A stretch of 64,000 nucleotides of DNA from Candidatus Lustribacter sp. (GCA_965277805.1 OZ255842.1:5469282-5533281), one strand, 5' to 3'. Positions 1 to 64,000 are shown, numbered from the stretch's first letter. Numbers are program-made.

Positions 1-3000
1 TTGAGAAGGCCGCCATCGAGGAAGGCCTGGCGCGGCGCACGCTGCTGGCCGCCGATGACGACAACGCCGCGACGTCGATGGTTCGCTGATGAGTGAAAAG
101 GTTCTCATCATTGAGGACGATCCGGAGATCGCATTTTTTGAACGCACGATTCTGGAGCGGGCCGGCTACGAGGTGAAGGTCGCAACGACCGGCGCCGCCG
201 GGCTCGAGGCGGAGCCCGCATTCAAGCCGGCCGTGATCTTGCTCGACGTCGAATTGCCGGATATCAGCGGCCTCGACGTGTGCACCTCGCTCGCGAACTC
301 GAGCGATGCATTCATCTTGATGGTGAGCGCGCACTCAACCGAAAACGACGTGCTCAAAGGCCTCGGTCTCGGAGCGGACGACTACGTGCGCAAGCCGTTC
401 TCGGGCAACGAACTCGTGGCGCGCGTGCAATCGTTTCTGCGGCGCCGCGAACGTTCGCGCCGCAGCGACGGTGACGGGCGTTTGCAAGCCGGCACGACCG
501 AACTCGTGCGCGACTTTCACACGCTCGAGAACGCCGGCAAGAACGTCAGCCTCACGGCGCTCGAGTTTCGTCTGTTGTGGTATCTTGCGGAGAACACCGG
601 CAAGCTGTTGACGCGTGCGCAGATTCTCGAACGCGTGTGGAACGACGTCTCCGGCGTTCCGACGCGGGTCGTCGATGTGCACGTTGCAGCCTTACGTAAG
701 AAGTTGAACGAAGTCGAGGCACAGCTGCAGATTTCCAGCGTGCGCGGCATCGGTTATCGTCTCGACGAACGATAGGAGCAAGCGGGACCACTCACCGGCA
801 CGCGAATCCCAAGGCACGTGAAGTCTTTCGTTCTGCGTATCGCGTGCATGGCGCTCTCGCTTGTGGTGTTGCCGCTCGGCGTTCGTTCGGCGACCGTGAG
901 TTACGCGCCGCCGGCGGGCAGCTTACCGGCCGGACGCTATCACGGGTTGCCGTATAGCGCGGTTCTGCCCTCGGGACGGCTGGTAACGCCGGCCGGGACC
1001 AGCATCGTCACCGGCATGAACAGCCTCGGCCTCGTTCTCTCGCCCGACGGACGATACGCGATCACGAGCAACGACGACGAAAGTCAGGGCGGCGTGCGCA
1101 GCGCGCTCGATCCCGATGCGAGCGGCGGCTATTCGCTGACCGTGATCGATACGACGCGAATGGTTGCGGTGATGCATTACCGCGCGCCGGAGGAGACGTT
1201 CTACAGCGGTCTCGCCGCCGTGCGCGATGCGAGCAATCCCGGGCAGACACTGGTGTTTGCCGCCGGCGGCGCGTCGAATGCCGTCTACGTGTTCGATCTC
1301 GATGCGGCCGGACGACTCGTGCCGGACGCGCATCATACGATCGCCGTTGCCGGACCTACCGATGCGGCGTTCGCGGATCGCGGTATCAGTTTTCCCTCCG
1401 CGCTGCTGGCATCGGCCGACGGCCGGCGCATCTACGTGGTTTCGGCCGCCGGGCAGTCGGTCGCGGCGATCGACGTTGCGTCGCGGCGCTTGTTAGCGGC
1501 GCCGCAGCGGGTCGGATTTTCGCCGAGCAGCGTTGCCGTTGCCGCAGCGCGGTTGCTGGTCACGAACGAAGGGCTGATGCGTTACGGCCGCTTAGCGCAG
1601 CCAGCGACGAGTCCGGCCTTCGACGTTCCGCCGGCGGATGCGTCCGATGCATCATCGCTTTCGGCAATCGCGCTCGATGCGGGCGGCGGCATCGCCGGAC
1701 CCGCCGGTGCATTGCCGATGGATACGCCGCTCGATGGGTTGCGGCTGGTTGGCGGAGCGCATCCGACCGCGATCGTCACGACCGCCGATGCGAACTACGC
1801 GTTCGTTGCGATGACCAACGTCGACCGCATCGCCACCGTCGCGCTCGGAGCGACGCCGCACGTGGCAGGCGGCACCGAACTGCGCTTGTTCGATCGTGGT
1901 CCGTACGGCACGCAGCCGACGGCGCTCGCGCTCAGTCGCGATGCGTCGCGTTTGTACGTCGCGTTGACCGGACTCGATGCGATCGCGGTGATCGATGCGC
2001 GCGATCCGCTGCACTTGCACCGCCTCGGTTTGATTCCCACCGGCTGGGCGCCGAGTGCGCTCGCACTGAGCGCCGACGATCGCACGCTCTACGTCGCGAA
2101 TCAAAACGGCTTCGGCTACGACGCAAACTTCACCGGTAATCCGGATACGGGCGCGGATGCGCGCGCGATCTGGTCGACGCTCGAGCGCATCGACTTGGCG
2201 GAAGTGAAGCTGGCGGATACGACGCGCGCGGCGCTAGGCGCGGCGCGGAACGTCGTGGCGATGCCGGTGCCGCTGCCGTCCGTCATCCACAATGTCGTGC
2301 TGGTGGTCGAGGGCGACAAGAATTACGATGAGGTGCTGGGCGATCTCGGCGTCGGCCCGGGCGCACCAAGCTTTTCGCTTTACGGTGCTGCCGACACGCC
2401 GAACTTGCACGCGCTTGCGCGACGCTTCGGTCTCGCGGGCAACTTCTTCGCCGAACCCGGCGGCGATGCGCAGGAAGCCGTTGCGGGCGGCATTGCAAGC
2501 GCATTCACCGCGCGCACGAATCCGGTGCAGGTCGCGCGGCGTCCGCTCGGTTTCGTCAACCAAGACCCCGAAGATATGCTGCGCTTGGGAACGGTGTTTC
2601 ACGAACTGGCGCGGCACAATCTCAGCTTCCGCGATTACGGCGGTTTTCTCGACGTTTCCGGCTCGACGCCGGCAGGCTACACGCAGAACGTTCCGGCGCC
2701 GGCCATTCTCGCCGATCATGTCGACCTGAATTATCCGACGTTCGCGGCGAAGGTGCCCGATGCGCTGCGGGCGGCAGAATTCGTGCGCGATTTCGGCGCG
2801 CTTTCGGCCGCGCACCGGCAGCCGCGCTTCGCCTACATTGCATTACCCGGCGGCGGCGACAGCCCGGGGGGAACGCCGGCTGCCGAAGCGTCCGTCGTCG
2901 ACGGCGATCGCGCGCTCGGCACGATCATCAGCTATCTCTCGCACTTGCCGTCGTGGCGCACGACCGTCGTGTTCGTGCTGCCGGCGGGCGCGAGCACGGG

Positions 3001-63000: not shown

Positions 63001-64000
63001 CCATGCGTTCGCGCTTGTCTTGCGGCGCGCGCGGTCCGAGCGCGTCGAGCACCGCGTGCGTGAGCAACTCGCCCACGCGAAGCGGCGTGGCGAGAGCAAA
63101 AGCAACCGAATCGGCGCACAAGACGGCATTGACGTCGATCGGGACACGGACCCGAATCATGACCGGCGCATTCGCGTGTGGCGGCAAGGCCTCTTGCCGA
63201 ATGCGCGGAAAGCGCGATGCGATGCCCGATCCCGAACCGCGCCGCCGCCGTCAACCTTCGCCGTCGTCCCGGTCGAGCGCAGGCGGAACCGGCGGCGGGC
63301 CGCTGCCGATGGCTGCGCTGATCATCGGCGTGATCGTGGCCGGGCTTGGGATCGGCGCACTCGTCTCGGCGTTTCAGAACCGCGGCACGTTGCCCGAACT
63401 CGGCGCGACCTCGGCCCCGCAGGTCACGCCGGTGGCGCAAATCACCGGGCCGCAGCCGGTGGTAACGCTCGTTCCCACCGCACCGCCCTCACCGTCGCCG
63501 TTGCCGTCGCCCTCGGCCACCCCGTCGCCGAAGCCATCGCCGAAGCCGTCGCCGTCGCCGAGCGCGCTGCCCTCGGAATCGCCGTCGCCCGCGGCAACCG
63601 CGACGCCGCACCCGACGGCCGCGCCCAGCGTCGCGGCGGCCGGCGCGACGCCGTCGCCGCTCGCGGCGGCACCGGCGACGCCGCGTCCCGCCTCGACCAA
63701 CGCGCTGAAGCCGATCATCGTCGTCGTCACGCCGAGCCCGGCGCCGTCTGCCCGGCCGACTGTAACGGCAAGCGTTCGCCCGCCGCCGGCGCCGAGCCCG
63801 GCCGACACGGCGGCGGCGCTCGTCCGCCGCTACATCGAGGACCTGATTGCCGGGGACGAGACCGGGGCATATGCGGCGCTCGGCGGAACCAGCAGCGACC
63901 GGACCCTCGACCTCAAGGAAGAAGCGTTTCTCGACAAGGATGCGCGTATCACGTCGATGCGCGTGAGCCGCAGCGACGGCGCGGGCGCGACGGTCGACGC

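Follow-up and report, generated by a model that had tools for sequence, protein, structure and literature searches.

Large sets of orphan periplasmic binding proteins have been described for the TTT (TctC/Bug) family. The available part of the report by Rosa et al. (PMC5994714) gives 434 TTT binding proteins for Rhodoplanes sp. Z2-YC6860, equal to 6.2% of CDS, and expansions of orphan TTT proteins also in Bordetella, Cupriavidus and Comamonas. Multiplication of oxygenases has been described for marine SAR202 Chloroflexota, for which the accessible sections of PMC6946804 give up to 62 oxygenase alpha subunits per genome and read the expansion as degradation of diverse, resistant aromatic organic matter. 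ABC importers for phthalate are also known, as stated for PatDABC and OphFGH in excerpts of PMC10973024. The genome of Candidatus Lustribacter contains an unusually large co-expansion of SsuA/TauA-type binding proteins and Rieske oxygenases that resembles these expansions in other bacteria.

The DNA is from an uncultured soil and peat bacterium of the genus Candidatus Lustribacter (Eremiobacterota/Vulcanimicrobiota), and the genome is a single contig of 5,533,281 bp with 64.3% GC and one 16S gene. A six-frame search of ORFs of at least 80 aa with jackhmmer recovered 370 NMT1-like and 131 Rieske-like sequences. The search of gene calls recovered 356 and 129, respectively, reduced under stricter thresholds to 351 at ≥60 bits and 114 at ≥100 bits; the basis of these counts, 5,100 gene calls and HMMs both of our own making, is crude. 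Pfam PF09084 gave 372 candidates, and all 150 of the 150 scored were above the cut-off, the weakest with 78 bits. The 126 Rieske oxygenases of the initial annotation are within the range of 114-131 found here, and ~116 is used as the working figure. The 352 NMT1/SsuA binding proteins of that annotation agree with the 351-370 NMT1-like sequences found, but the total pools binding proteins with 29 homologues of cytoplasmic enzymes. The number of true SsuA/TauA-type binding proteins is ~327, comprised of a main cluster of 300 and 27 others, which is 6.4% of the 5,100 gene calls or 5.8% of the 5,601 predicted previously. The NMT1 and Rieske families together fill 472,209 bp or 8.5% of the chromosome, close to the 8.8% reported before, and the median pairwise identities of 32.9% (NMT1) and 32.2% (Rieske) likewise reproduce the earlier values of 34% and 32%. 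Native codon use was also borne out, with GC3 of 0.805 for NMT1 and 0.800 for Rieske genes compared to 0.804 genome-wide. Further expanded families are Amidohydro_2 (49), FAA_hydrolase (23), LigB (17) and UbiD (14).

The window, the whole stretch of DNA that was analysed (64,000 nucleotides, contig positions 5469282-5533281), had been presented as part of the expansion, but it contains no member of either family: the HMMs detected 0 NMT1-like and 0 Rieske-like genes in positions 1..64000, and PF09084 and PF00355 matched 0 of the 59 window proteins. The expanded families are located elsewhere on the contig, from position 1 to ~5.42 Mb, where they occupy 22 of 23 chromosome bins of 250 kb with the last bin devoid of members. 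The contents of the window are as follows.

1..64000, no strand given: 59 ordinary gene calls, including GltB, a 2-oxoacid dehydrogenase complex, ThiS/ThiG, penicillin amidase, a two-component regulator, an MFS transporter and others
10579..11307, minus strand: class II aldolase (Aldolase_II; PF00596, 1.7e-26), one of 23 paralogues (cluster 11)
34595..35827, plus strand: Pyr_redox_2 flavoprotein of 410 aa (Pfam Pyr_redox_2, 7.7e-53)
53367..54959, minus strand: SBP_bac_5 (Dpp/Opp-type) solute-binding protein (PF00496, 2e-86), in cluster 16 of 17 members

The SBP_bac_5 protein belongs to a different family and is outside the NMT1 expansion. Class II aldolases adjoin main-cluster NMT1 genes above chance (7 versus 2.6 expected, z = 2.9).

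Both families are large only in Candidatus Lustribacter, in agreement with the restriction to the genus reported earlier. All eight genus genomes contained 147-372 NMT1 first-look candidates compared to 0-22 in the 53 genomes searched from elsewhere in the family, order and class, and first-look Rieske candidates numbered 52-156 compared to 2-15. A full-length paralogue used as query had 89-150 matches at E≤1e-40 in each of five genus genomes. One tested paralogue has orthologues 97, 82, 73 and 71% identical in four genus genomes with next-best matches of no more than 63%, and the spacing of the NMT1-Rieske-NMT1 arrangement is retained in two of the four. The closest clusters in the ESM Atlas are mainly of Vulcanimicrobiota origin, which is a lead only. 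The family is thus a lineage-specific expansion of orphan binding proteins in the sense defined for TTT/Bug. An artefact, in which a chimeric or mis-assembled metagenome genome or over-reaching home-made HMMs produced the expansion, is extremely improbable. The quality estimate does give 5.9% contamination and the iterated HMM did draw in a related family of non-binders; against this stand the single 5.53-Mb contig with one 16S gene and native composition and codon use, the scores with the curated PF09084 model and the same expansion in seven other genus genomes. Neither confinement of the copies to a few islands of odd composition nor absence from the other genus genomes was found when checked.

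The Pfam checks were drawn from 40 regions picked for gene density, a non-random sample in which the NMT1 cut-off was exceeded by 32 of 32 main-cluster proteins, and by 20 of 45 and missed by 25 of 45 proteins tested outside the main cluster. The binding proteins were assigned to PF09084/PF13379, not to TctC. A profile of 83 paralogues searched against the PDB retrieved TauA (3.4e-32) and SsuA (2.6e-30). The AlphaFold model of one paralogue, built from the alignment of the 83 and having a pLDDT of 93.7, is predicted to adopt the two-lobed class II periplasmic binding-protein fold, and Foldseek aligned it with SsuA, TauA and ThiY at TM 0.73-0.76 with a probability of 1.00, although identity to the solved SsuA and TauA is 19-21%. 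None of 15 main-cluster proteins tested reached an NCBIfam cut-off; SsuA_fam (TIGR01728) was the top model for all 15 with 54-119 bits (best 118.7) compared to the cut-off of 163.5, and scores with the TauA model (TIGR01729) were no higher than 61 bits compared to 304. Ligands of the solved relatives are sulfonates, taurine, thiamine precursors, PQQ, nitrate and bicarbonate, with no lignin-type aromatic acid among them. PatD and OphF of the phthalate importers are NMT1-type proteins.

Export of most of the binding proteins, as claimed in the initial annotation, was supported by a heuristic applied at the called start, which detected a signal-peptide-like N-terminus in at least 221 of 300 main-cluster proteins, a lower bound since start codons were self-called. 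The positive control Peripla_BP_6 scored 74 of 88, and negative controls scored 0 of 94 (Rieske), 9 of 87 (ABC ATPases) and 5 of 49 (Amidohydro_2). According to the available text of PMC9758169, the cell envelope of a cultured member of the same bacterial family is Gram-negative and includes an outer membrane.

The NMT1-like sequences are not uniform, the cluster of 29 being separate from the main cluster. No signal peptide was detected at the called start in any of the 29, most are without a Pfam NMT1 match, and the one member tested matched 4,5-dihydroxyphthalate decarboxylase (PDB 9jp7) with E 1.3e-43 over residues 3-323. Judged from sequence, the 29 are most probably cytoplasmic homologues of this decarboxylase, an enzyme family, although public records label such proteins "ABC transporter substrate-binding protein". 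Their presence raises the possibility that many more of the paralogues are disguised enzymes, either periplasmic or cytoplasmic catalysts with a binding-protein fold such as Thi5, DszB, MqnD and the decarboxylase. Consistent with this possibility, Foldseek matches include Thi5, DszB and MqnD, and ~132 of 300 main-cluster proteins contain an RR motif, by a loose pattern, compatible with Tat export of folded proteins. However, the closest relatives of the main cluster in sequence and fold are true transport binding proteins, and 21 of its members are encoded in ABC operons. Furthermore, there is no invariant residue among the 83 paralogues and only six positions are conserved at ≥90%, five of which are Gly or Pro, a result that argues against a shared catalytic site. 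Catalysis by many of the paralogues is therefore very unlikely.

The arrangement of the genes supports the neighbour pairs previously described. Of 114 Rieske genes, 47 adjoin an NMT1 gene compared to a mean of 15.1 (sd 3.5, maximum 28) in 2,000 shuffles; the remaining 67 lack such a neighbour, and a Rieske gene adjoins only 50 of the 351 NMT1 genes. There are 52 adjacent pairs; in 27 of them both genes have the same orientation and are separated by a median of 4 bp. At the example locus (contig positions 584871-589429), which was borne out, an NMT1 gene, a Rieske gene and a second NMT1 gene are on the minus strand, followed by a divergent Rieske gene; both NMT1 products have a signal peptide. 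Co-divergence within pairs was slight (Mantel r = 0.12, a value reached in 202 of 5,000 permutations), and the partner of the nearest Rieske ranked first in only 4 of 38 pairs, indicating that most pairs were not duplicated as units.

The statement that nearly all binders are without adjacent transporter genes holds for immediate neighbours, since a BPD_transp_1 permease adjoins only 9 of 351 NMT1 genes, although the number rises to 37 of 351 when counted within three genes. An SsuC-like permease was absent within three genes for 279 of 300 main-cluster genes (93%) and present for 21 of 300, and was present for 9 of the 27 other binding proteins. Since a missing permease or ATPase partner is a feature of the operon and not of the protein family, membership in the NMT1 family stands and the proteins are orphans. 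The genome contains 38 SsuC-like permease genes in 29 loci, of which 28 include an ATPase, 21 have an NMT1 gene within three genes and 8 have no nearby binding-protein gene; binder, ATPase and permease occur together in 20 loci. By NCBIfam, SaoP, SsuC and TauC are the closest relatives of the permeases.

The large fraction of genes with no nearby permease, and their position next to genes that they might regulate, would also be explained if the orphan binders activate the adjacent catabolic gene by docking to a membrane receptor, such as a histidine kinase or a chemoreceptor. In the parts available of Ortega et al. (PMC9602780) and Rosa et al. (PMC5994714) it is argued that binding proteins can act in signalling, and such a role has been put forward for some orphan binders, both TTT and other. 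Sensing is nevertheless unlikely. Sensor kinases showed no matching expansion; the one cluster with histidine-kinase domains in the sampled member has 15 members and is not enriched beside NMT1 genes (z = -0.6). IclR regulators are few (14) and within two genes of only five main-cluster genes. Orphan paralogues of the permease-linked binding proteins are at a median identity of 51%, the same as the typical value for nearest paralogues, indicating that permease-linked and orphan members intermingle within a single family. Lastly, a seven-gene catabolic cluster (contig positions 2178157-2187024) is syntenic with a cluster on a Diaphorobacter plasmid at 62-82% amino-acid identity. In the Lustribacter cluster an ABC ATPase and SsuC-like permease stand where the plasmid has an MFS transporter gene, and an NMT1 binding-protein gene comes after the LigB gene. 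The NMT1 ABC system takes the place of the MFS importer, which points to transport.

Other genes are also enriched beside main-cluster NMT1 genes. The highest score was for Rieske genes (z = 8.9), followed by luciferase-like monooxygenases (5.0, with 15 neighbours versus 4.7 expected), dihydroxyphthalate-decarboxylase-like genes (3.8), UbiD (3.8) and Amidohydro_2 (3.2); enrichment was absent for ABC ATPases (z = -1.4) and SsuC-like permeases (z = -0.2). The enrichment of luciferase-like monooxygenases, of which there are 40 in the genome, is compatible with scavenging of organosulfur, in which the proteins would bind sulfonates, sulfate esters or taurine and SsuD/SfnG-like monooxygenases together with Rieske enzymes would free sulfite from aliphatic and aromatic sulfonates in sulfur-poor peat. 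The top NCBIfam and PDB relatives of the binders (SsuA and TauA) and of the permeases point in the same direction, the fold is shared by DszB, an aromatic sulfinate desulfinase, and one of the monooxygenases scored 181 bits with the SfnG model, under the cut-off of 383. However, no protein exceeded any sulfonate-specific NCBIfam cut-off, and the remaining enriched or expanded neighbours are carbon-catabolic, comprising LigB ring cleavage, FAA hydrolase, aldolases, UbiD, dihydroxyphthalate-type decarboxylases and Amidohydro_2. The Diaphorobacter-like cluster with its NMT1 ABC system is a ring-cleavage pathway, and ~300 binders for a single nutrient element would lack precedent. Sulfur acquisition is thus a fairly unlikely explanation.

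The oxygenases had been characterized as mostly LigXa-like, which holds only in part. The C-terminal domains were surveyed with Pfam in a non-random sample of 61 oxygenase-sized proteins, of which 58 have the Rieske [2Fe-2S] domain, the other three being truncated by self-made start calls. A near-full LigXa_C match was found in 18 (~30%), and another 19 reached the cut-off weakly or via a piece of ~55 residues (profile ~204-260). VanA_C was found in 8 and Ring_hydroxyl_A or Aromatic_hydrox in 7; the remaining 9 have no C-terminal domain over the cut-off, 5 without a match and 4 with a LigXa_C piece below it. Genome-wide, ~37 of 83 matches to LigXa_C (PF19301) cover more than 200 profile positions. 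Oxygenases other than the LigXa-type ~30% resemble phthalate dioxygenase, VanA or classical oxygenases; one tested oxygenase with the short LigXa_C piece had phthalate 4,5-dioxygenase as the top solved match (6.2e-48). There are only 8 beta subunits (Ring_hydroxyl_B) compared to ~116 alpha subunits. The paucity of beta subunits, the match to phthalate 4,5-dioxygenase and a single reductase with NAD_binding_1 followed by Fer2 are features of the Class IA, beta-less (alpha3) phthalate family. The likeness to phthalate 4,5-dioxygenase, LigXa and VanA, together with co-expanded LigB, UbiD, FAA_hydrolase, Amidohydro_2 and decarboxylase homologues, suggests aromatic catabolism, and the specialist of diverse aromatic substrates proposed in the initial annotation is reasonable as a reading of family resemblance.

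The LigXa-type oxygenase works in a three-component system together with LigXc and LigXd, its own ferredoxin and reductase. In the Lustribacter genome the NAD_binding_1 and Fer2 reductase (phthalate dioxygenase reductase/VanB-type) is encoded by one gene at contig positions 2507333-2508274, Reductase_C matched 0 of 22 candidates, and there are 12 small Rieske proteins and one putidaredoxin-reductase-like gene, counts that cover the families searched for, such that other flavoproteins could serve. The putidaredoxin-reductase-like gene is that of the flavoprotein at 34595..35827 in the window, which is similar to NADH:ferredoxin reductases and matched putidaredoxin reductase (1.3e-26), biphenyl dioxygenase ferredoxin reductase BphA4 (1.3e-20) and TodA (5e-20) in the PDB. 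No paralogue was found at E<1e-10 among the 5,100 gene calls, and no Rieske gene is within three genes. Since it is the sole gene of its type in the genome, the flavoprotein is a candidate common electron donor for the ~116 Rieske oxygenases, a role suggested by homology.

The explanation favored as probable is that orphan periplasmic binders, encoded beside a cytoplasmic enzyme for the same substrate, feed ~29 common SsuBC-type importers, with very few reductases supplying the oxygenases. An ancestor of most of the genus would have multiplied one SsuA/TauA-type family to ~300-327 copies and the beta-less Rieske oxygenases of the phthalate-dioxygenase/LigXa/VanA group to ~116, most of the binding-protein genes being duplicated without membrane components. 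The binder genes lie beside those of cytoplasmic catabolic enzymes, chiefly Rieske oxygenases, often overlapping by a few bases in one operon. In such a hub-and-spoke arrangement each orphan binder would capture a single small periplasmic compound, probably an anion or an aromatic, pass it to one of the ~29 common importers and be co-regulated with the enzyme making the first attack on it, and the oxygenases would draw on very few common electron donors. The copy numbers, fold, export signals, scarcity of linked permeases, gene adjacency, confinement to the genus and age of the duplications are supported directly, and the common use of permeases and of reductases and the chemistry of the substrates are inferred. 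More tentatively, the genome may have a plug-in architecture, in which hundreds of "capture and attack" modules, each an orphan binder with a first-step enzyme that is most often a beta-less Rieske oxygenase, all rely on a limited common set of ~29 ABC importers together with one or two reductases. If so, new substrates could be added by duplicating only the two genes that bear specificity, the genus would be a dedicated consumer of very diverse aromatic and acidic organic compounds of peat and soil, and a design of many binders to few transporters would have evolved independently for ABC importers.

As far as the available part of PMC5994714 describes the TTT expansions, they share with Lustribacter one binding-protein family at hundreds of copies and ~6% of genes, copies scattered along the chromosome with low pairwise identity and mostly without adjacent membrane components, transporters far fewer than binders, a lineage-specific and not imported origin, and location near catabolic and regulatory genes. 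The Lustribacter family is NMT1/SsuA (PF09084), such that the likeness is in the way of working and not in family. The transporters are primary ABC importers of the SsuBC type in contrast to the secondary TctAB carriers, the host is an uncultured member of Eremiobacterota and not of Proteobacteria, and the binders are paired, with strong statistical support, with one enzyme family, the Rieske oxygenases. The Rhodoplanes total given there exceeds the ~327 binders of Lustribacter at an about equal share of genes, contrary to the initial annotation, which had considered the Lustribacter set larger than any single-family expansion in print; the paper behind that comparison (PMC9602780) covers, in the part available, only 49 model strains. 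SAR202, as presented in the accessible sections of PMC6946804, is similar in having many alpha and very few beta subunits, annotation mostly as phthalate 4,5-dioxygenase-like, oxygenases at ~2-2.6% of genes and co-expanded luciferase-like monooxygenases. It differs in the maximum of 62 copies compared to ~116 and in the marine as opposed to soil and peat habitat, and those sections describe no paired expansion of binding proteins. SsuABC and TauABC importers share the fold, Pfam family and permease type with the Lustribacter proteins, which differ by falling below the SsuA_fam and TauA cut-offs, by the scarcity of nearby transporter genes and by having carbon-catabolic enzymes as neighbours. 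Finally, homologues of phthalate 4,5-dioxygenase (PDB 7fjl, 7fhr), its reductase and 4,5-dihydroxyphthalate decarboxylase are present as in phthalate catabolism, but in place of one pathway Lustribacter holds dozens of diverged copies per enzyme.

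The contig carrying the finding is a single sequence of 5,533,281 bp with 64.3% GC. No NMT1 or Rieske domain was detected with Pfam in any of the 59 genes called in the window, and the family HMMs of this study recovered no member of either family there. The window genes are ordinary, encoding among others glutamate synthase, a 2-oxoacid dehydrogenase complex, ThiS/ThiG, a penicillin amidase, an MFS transporter and regulators. The following have no link to the finding (window coordinates).

8239-10569, plus strand: penicillin-amidase family protein of 776 aa
15408-16496, minus strand: DUF2600 protein beside housekeeping genes
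22175-23287, plus strand: DUF4438 protein beside housekeeping genes

Since the window holds no family members, all results on the expansion concern the rest of the chromosome. The co-expansion of NMT1/SsuA-type binding proteins and Rieske oxygenases proposed in the initial annotation is real and robust genome-wide, although an enzyme family had been pooled into it and the window itself is empty of both families. With the window GltB as query, the nearest named records (L010-L016, 82-99% identity) were metagenome assemblies under the names Candidatus Lustribacter, Eremiobacteraeota or Vulcanimicrobiota, followed by Ca. Velthaea and Ca. Elarobacter (65-71%); by their labels, the assemblies of the named relatives come from bogs and peat-type soils. 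The available part of the description of Vulcanimicrobium alpinus, a cultured member of the same family, reports a Gram-negative envelope with an outer membrane (PMC9758169), and a periplasm is therefore expected in this genome.

A jackhmmer search started from one paralogue and run against all six-frame ORFs of at least 80 aa recovered 370 NMT1-like and 131 Rieske-like ORFs. The same HMMs identified 356 and 129 genes among the 5,100 calls of a crude codon-log-odds gene caller (91.5% of the sequence covered), or 351 NMT1 genes at ≥60 bits and 114 Rieske genes at ≥100 bits. All 150 scored candidates passed the curated Pfam NMT1 model, the weakest with 78 bits, out of 372 first-look candidates. 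Together the two families span 472,209 bp, or 8.5% of the chromosome. Median pairwise identity is 32.9% for NMT1 and 32.2% for Rieske proteins, that to the nearest paralogue is 51% and 57%, and GC3 and codon scores of both families equal the genome average. These figures agree almost exactly with the counts, chromosome share, identities and native codon use first reported. None of 71 tested NMT1, Rieske, permease, Amidohydro_2 and Peripla_BP_6 paralogues reached an NCBIfam cut-off. With the Pfam scores and the native codon use, an artefact is scarcely credible.

Single-linkage clustering of an all-against-all BLAST divided the NMT1-like genes into a main cluster of 300, a cluster of 29 and 27 others. 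The main cluster is a true SsuA/TauA-type binding-protein family. All 32 sampled members scored above the Pfam NMT1 cut-off, and a profile of 83 members matched TauA (3.4e-32), SsuA (2.6e-30) and NrtA-type proteins in the PDB. The AlphaFold model of one paralogue (pLDDT 93.7) superposes on SsuA, TauA and ThiY with TM scores of 0.73-0.76. SsuA_fam was the best NCBIfam match for 15 of 15 proteins, at 54-119 bits and thus below its cut-off of 163.5. A signal-peptide-like N-terminus was present in 221 of the 300 proteins, compared with 74/88 Peripla_BP_6 proteins as positive control and 0/94 Rieske proteins, 9/87 ABC ATPases and 5/49 Amidohydro_2 proteins as negative controls; these figures refer to the called start only. 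Scoring any start within 60 codons was discarded as a measure because it flags 37/87 ABC ATPases. An RR motif compatible with Tat export (e.g. MNRRxALxGLGA) was found in approximately 132 of the 300 with a loose pattern that also matches 30/87 ABC ATPases within a wider search range, suggesting Tat rather than Sec export for many of these proteins.

The cluster of 29 has a different character. No member carries a signal peptide at the called start, most are without a Pfam match, and one aligns over its full length with 4,5-dihydroxyphthalate decarboxylase (9jp7, E 1.3e-43). Judged by homology, these proteins are putative cytoplasmic homologues of that decarboxylase with a binding-protein fold; examples, as locus handles with local coordinates, are L107:6847-7833, L101:8005-8946 and L118:3361-4314. 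In public plasmid records, related proteins bear the label "ABC transporter substrate-binding protein", apparently a widespread misannotation. The 352 binding proteins first counted were thus reproduced in number and are better given as approximately 327 binding proteins plus 29 decarboxylase-like enzymes. The same 29 genes lend some colour to the idea that many of the paralogues are disguised enzymes, catalysts with the binding-protein fold; since the main cluster is nearest in sequence and fold to transport binding proteins, this is judged very unlikely.

The Rieske matches comprise 116 of at least 280 aa and 13 shorter ones, including 12 small Rieske proteins below 200 aa. Pfam was applied to 66 Rieske proteins, 61 of them oxygenase-sized, from 40 regions picked for gene density rather than at random. 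A Rieske domain was seen in 58 of the 61. The C-terminal domain was a near-full LigXa_C in 18, a weak long LigXa_C match in 5, VanA_C in 8 and Ring_hydroxyl_A or Aromatic_hydrox in 7; in a further 14 no more than a conserved piece of ~55 residues brought the match to the LigXa_C cut-off, 4 more remained below it, and 5 had no C-terminal match in Pfam. Genome-wide, about 37 of 83 LigXa_C matches cover more than 200 profile positions. The best solved relative of one short-piece oxygenase is phthalate 4,5-dioxygenase (7fjl, 6.2e-48). Only 8 beta-subunit genes were found in the genome. On this domain make-up and the few beta subunits, the most fitting description of the family is beta-less oxygenases of the phthalate/LigXa/VanA group, and the earlier label "mostly LigXa-like" was overstated. 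Recent transfer of one oxygenase gene linked to an NMT1 gene was considered and found no sign in its favour, the best plasmid-borne relatives being at most 52% identical.

Among the flavoprotein families searched, few candidates for electron supply were found. The genome has two NAD_binding_1 matches, one sharing an ORF with a Fer2 domain (contig 2507333-2508274) in the phthalate-dioxygenase-reductase/VanB arrangement, the single such gene found. Window gene 34595-35827 resembles putidaredoxin reductase, BphA4 and TodA; it is the sole putidaredoxin-reductase-like gene found and has no paralogue at E<1e-10. Reductase_C (PF14759) was absent from all 22 candidates and from the genome. With two reductase-type genes and no Reductase_C, one or two reductases appear to supply the ~116 oxygenases, and other flavoproteins may contribute as well; the twelve small Rieske proteins are candidate ferredoxins.

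The two families are neighbours far more often than expected, as first reported: 47 of 114 Rieske genes adjoin an NMT1 gene, against a mean of 15.1 (sd 3.5, maximum 28) in 2,000 shuffles. Both genes share a strand in 27 of the 52 adjacent pairs, at a median gap of 4 bp. At contig 584871-589429 an NMT1, a Rieske and a second NMT1 gene lie on one strand with stop/start overlaps, followed by a divergent Rieske gene. A search for sequencing runs containing this locus listed no RNA data set, a result without bearing on its expression. Beside main-cluster genes, enrichment was found for Rieske oxygenases (z 8.9), luciferase-like monooxygenases (5.0), decarboxylase-like genes (3.8), UbiD (3.8) and Amidohydro_2 (3.2), and none for ABC ATPases (-1.4) or SsuC-like permeases (-0.2). 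The 40 luciferase-like monooxygenases (e.g. L092:7463-8509, L096:16926-18065) adjoin NMT1 genes 15 times against 4.7 by chance, a three-fold excess which recalls the ssuA-ssuD pairing of sulfonate operons. This pairing would fit scavenging of sulfur from sulfonates, an explanation considered improbable. The enzyme families make aromatic substrates plausible.

Nearly all binding-protein genes indeed have no adjoining transporter: of 351 NMT1 genes, 9 directly adjoin a permease and 37 have one within 3 genes. Of the 75 BPD_transp_1 matches in the genome, 38 form one cluster nearest the SaoP, SsuC and TauC models (6 sampled members) and occupy 29 loci, with an ATPase in 28 and an NMT1 gene in 21 within 3 genes. 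Within the main cluster, 21 of 300 genes have an SsuC-like permease no more than 3 genes away (11.3 by chance), so that 93% are orphans. Between permease-linked members and their orphan paralogues the median identity is 51%, so linked and orphan genes belong to one interleaved family. The many orphans could alternatively function in signalling, which is judged slightly less probable than sulfur scavenging; against it stands a cluster in which an NMT1-type system takes the place of an importer.

That cluster comprises seven genes (contig 2178157-2187024; L107:6847-15714) syntenic with a plasmid cluster of Diaphorobacter (Betaproteobacteria), at 62-82% amino-acid identity (decarboxylase-like 82%; amidohydrolases 70% and 65%; LigB-type dioxygenase 62%; aldolase 75%; TPP enzyme 74%). 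The decarboxylase-like gene is likewise 82% identical to proteins on Paraburkholderia, Diaphorobacter, Cupriavidus and Acidovorax replicons. In place of the plasmid's MFS transporter gene, an ABC ATPase and an SsuC-like permease are encoded here, and the LigB gene is followed by one for an NMT1 binding protein. Synteny and identities show clearly that this ring-cleavage cluster has been exchanged between phyla. The replacement shows that an NMT1-type ABC system stands in for the substrate importer, the most direct evidence here for import of catabolic substrates by such systems. The best account, regarded as reasonably probable, is that one periplasmic binding-protein family multiplied as orphans within the lineage: each orphan would be encoded beside an enzyme acting on the same substrate and would feed one of ~29 common ABC importers, and the oxygenases would draw on very few common reductases.

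Restriction of the expansion to the genus, also claimed initially, was borne out among genomes of its class, the range of this comparison: first-look candidates number 147-372 NMT1 in 8 genus genomes and 0-22 in 53 others of the family, order and class; Rieske first-look candidates, with full matches set at E<=1e-30, number 52-156 and 2-15 in relatives. Five genus genomes each have at least 89-150 NMT1 matches at E<=1e-40 among the candidates scored, no more than 150 per genome. Orthologues of one NMT1 paralogue were found in four genus genomes (97, 82, 73 and 71% identity; next-best matches <=63%), the N-gap-N spacing of its locus (N, NMT1 gene) is retained in two, and the best match in a fifth, smaller genome is 44%. 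By these identities, duplication of this gene is older than the split of most genus species. Confinement to the genus, and paralogues much less alike than orthologues, point to an origin of most of the expansion on the genus stem, with some later horizontal input. The nearest ESM-Atlas clusters, as a lead only, are mostly from the same phylum. Duplication of N-R (NMT1-Rieske) pairs mostly as units was dropped as an explanation (Mantel r = 0.12 over 38 pairs, a value reached in 202 of 5,000 permutations); the partner of the nearest Rieske protein comes first in 4 of the 38 pairs and third or better in 10. The smaller genome, G005 (one contig, ~3.9 Mb), has 147 NMT1 and 52 Rieske first-look candidates and no orthologue of the tested paralogue. 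It could represent an early branch or a case of secondary loss, and would be useful for dating the expansion.

Genomes of the genus measure 3.4-5.8 Mb compared with 1.6-4.5 Mb in family relatives. Other families are also expanded, named here from one or two representatives per cluster.

Expanded families and gene numbers
Transport: Peripla_BP_6, 88 + 22; ABC ATPases, 87; MFS, 27
Enzymes, larger families: Amidohydro_2, 49; short-chain dehydrogenases, 44; luciferase-like monooxygenases, 40; TPP enzymes, 27
Enzymes, smaller families: class II aldolases, 23; FAA hydrolases, 23; LigB, 17; UbiD, 14

TonB-dependent receptor genes with CarboxypepD_reg and Plug domains, in paralogue clusters of at least 10 genes, occur in NMT1- and Rieske-rich regions outside the window (L093:6077-8869, L116:15033-18089); through their products the same substrates might cross the outer membrane.

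In each adjacent N-R pair, a candidate ligand binder and a candidate enzyme for a single compound come together, which gives a direct experimental handle that could help substrate assignment in two large, poorly characterised protein families. In bogs and peat-type soils, breakdown of phenolic organic matter influences carbon storage. The genus was reportedly named by Ji et al. in 2021 in ISME J. Outside that paper, the literature searched contained no prior description of an NMT1/Rieske expansion in Eremiobacterota; the available part of PMC9535955 notes hydrocarbon-degradation genes in this group and nothing further on the point.

The claim that the expansion exceeds the largest in print fails: the reference behind it surveys, in the part available, only 49 model strains (PMC9602780), and the accessible text of Rosa et al. 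(2018, PMC5994714) reports 434 orphan-rich TTT binding proteins in Rhodoplanes, 6.2% of CDS, with smaller TTT expansions in Bordetella, Cupriavidus and Comamonas, attributed to lineage-specific expansion. By comparison, the ~327 binding proteins here are fewer in copies and about equal in gene share (6.4% of the 5,100 calls, or 5.8% of the 5,601 genes of the initial annotation). A share of ~6% thus equals that of the largest expansion of a single family on record for a prokaryote, reached with another binding-protein family and transporter class in another, almost uncultured phylum; alongside the TTT case, this points to multiplication of orphan binding proteins as a general way of attaining a wide substrate range. 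For SAR202, the part of Saw et al. (2020, PMC6946804) available describes up to 62 oxygenase alpha subunits per genome, mostly annotated phthalate 4,5-dioxygenase-like, with 1-3 beta subunits, and expanded luciferase-like monooxygenases, which the monooxygenase set here recalls. Against those 62, the ~116 Rieske oxygenase genes are the largest described set found, apparently served by one or two reductases. Overall, the design is that of the TTT/Bug expansions and the SAR202 oxygenase expansions, with the differences that the binding-protein family is another one, the importers are of the ABC type, the phylum is uncultured and the two expansions are statistically linked.
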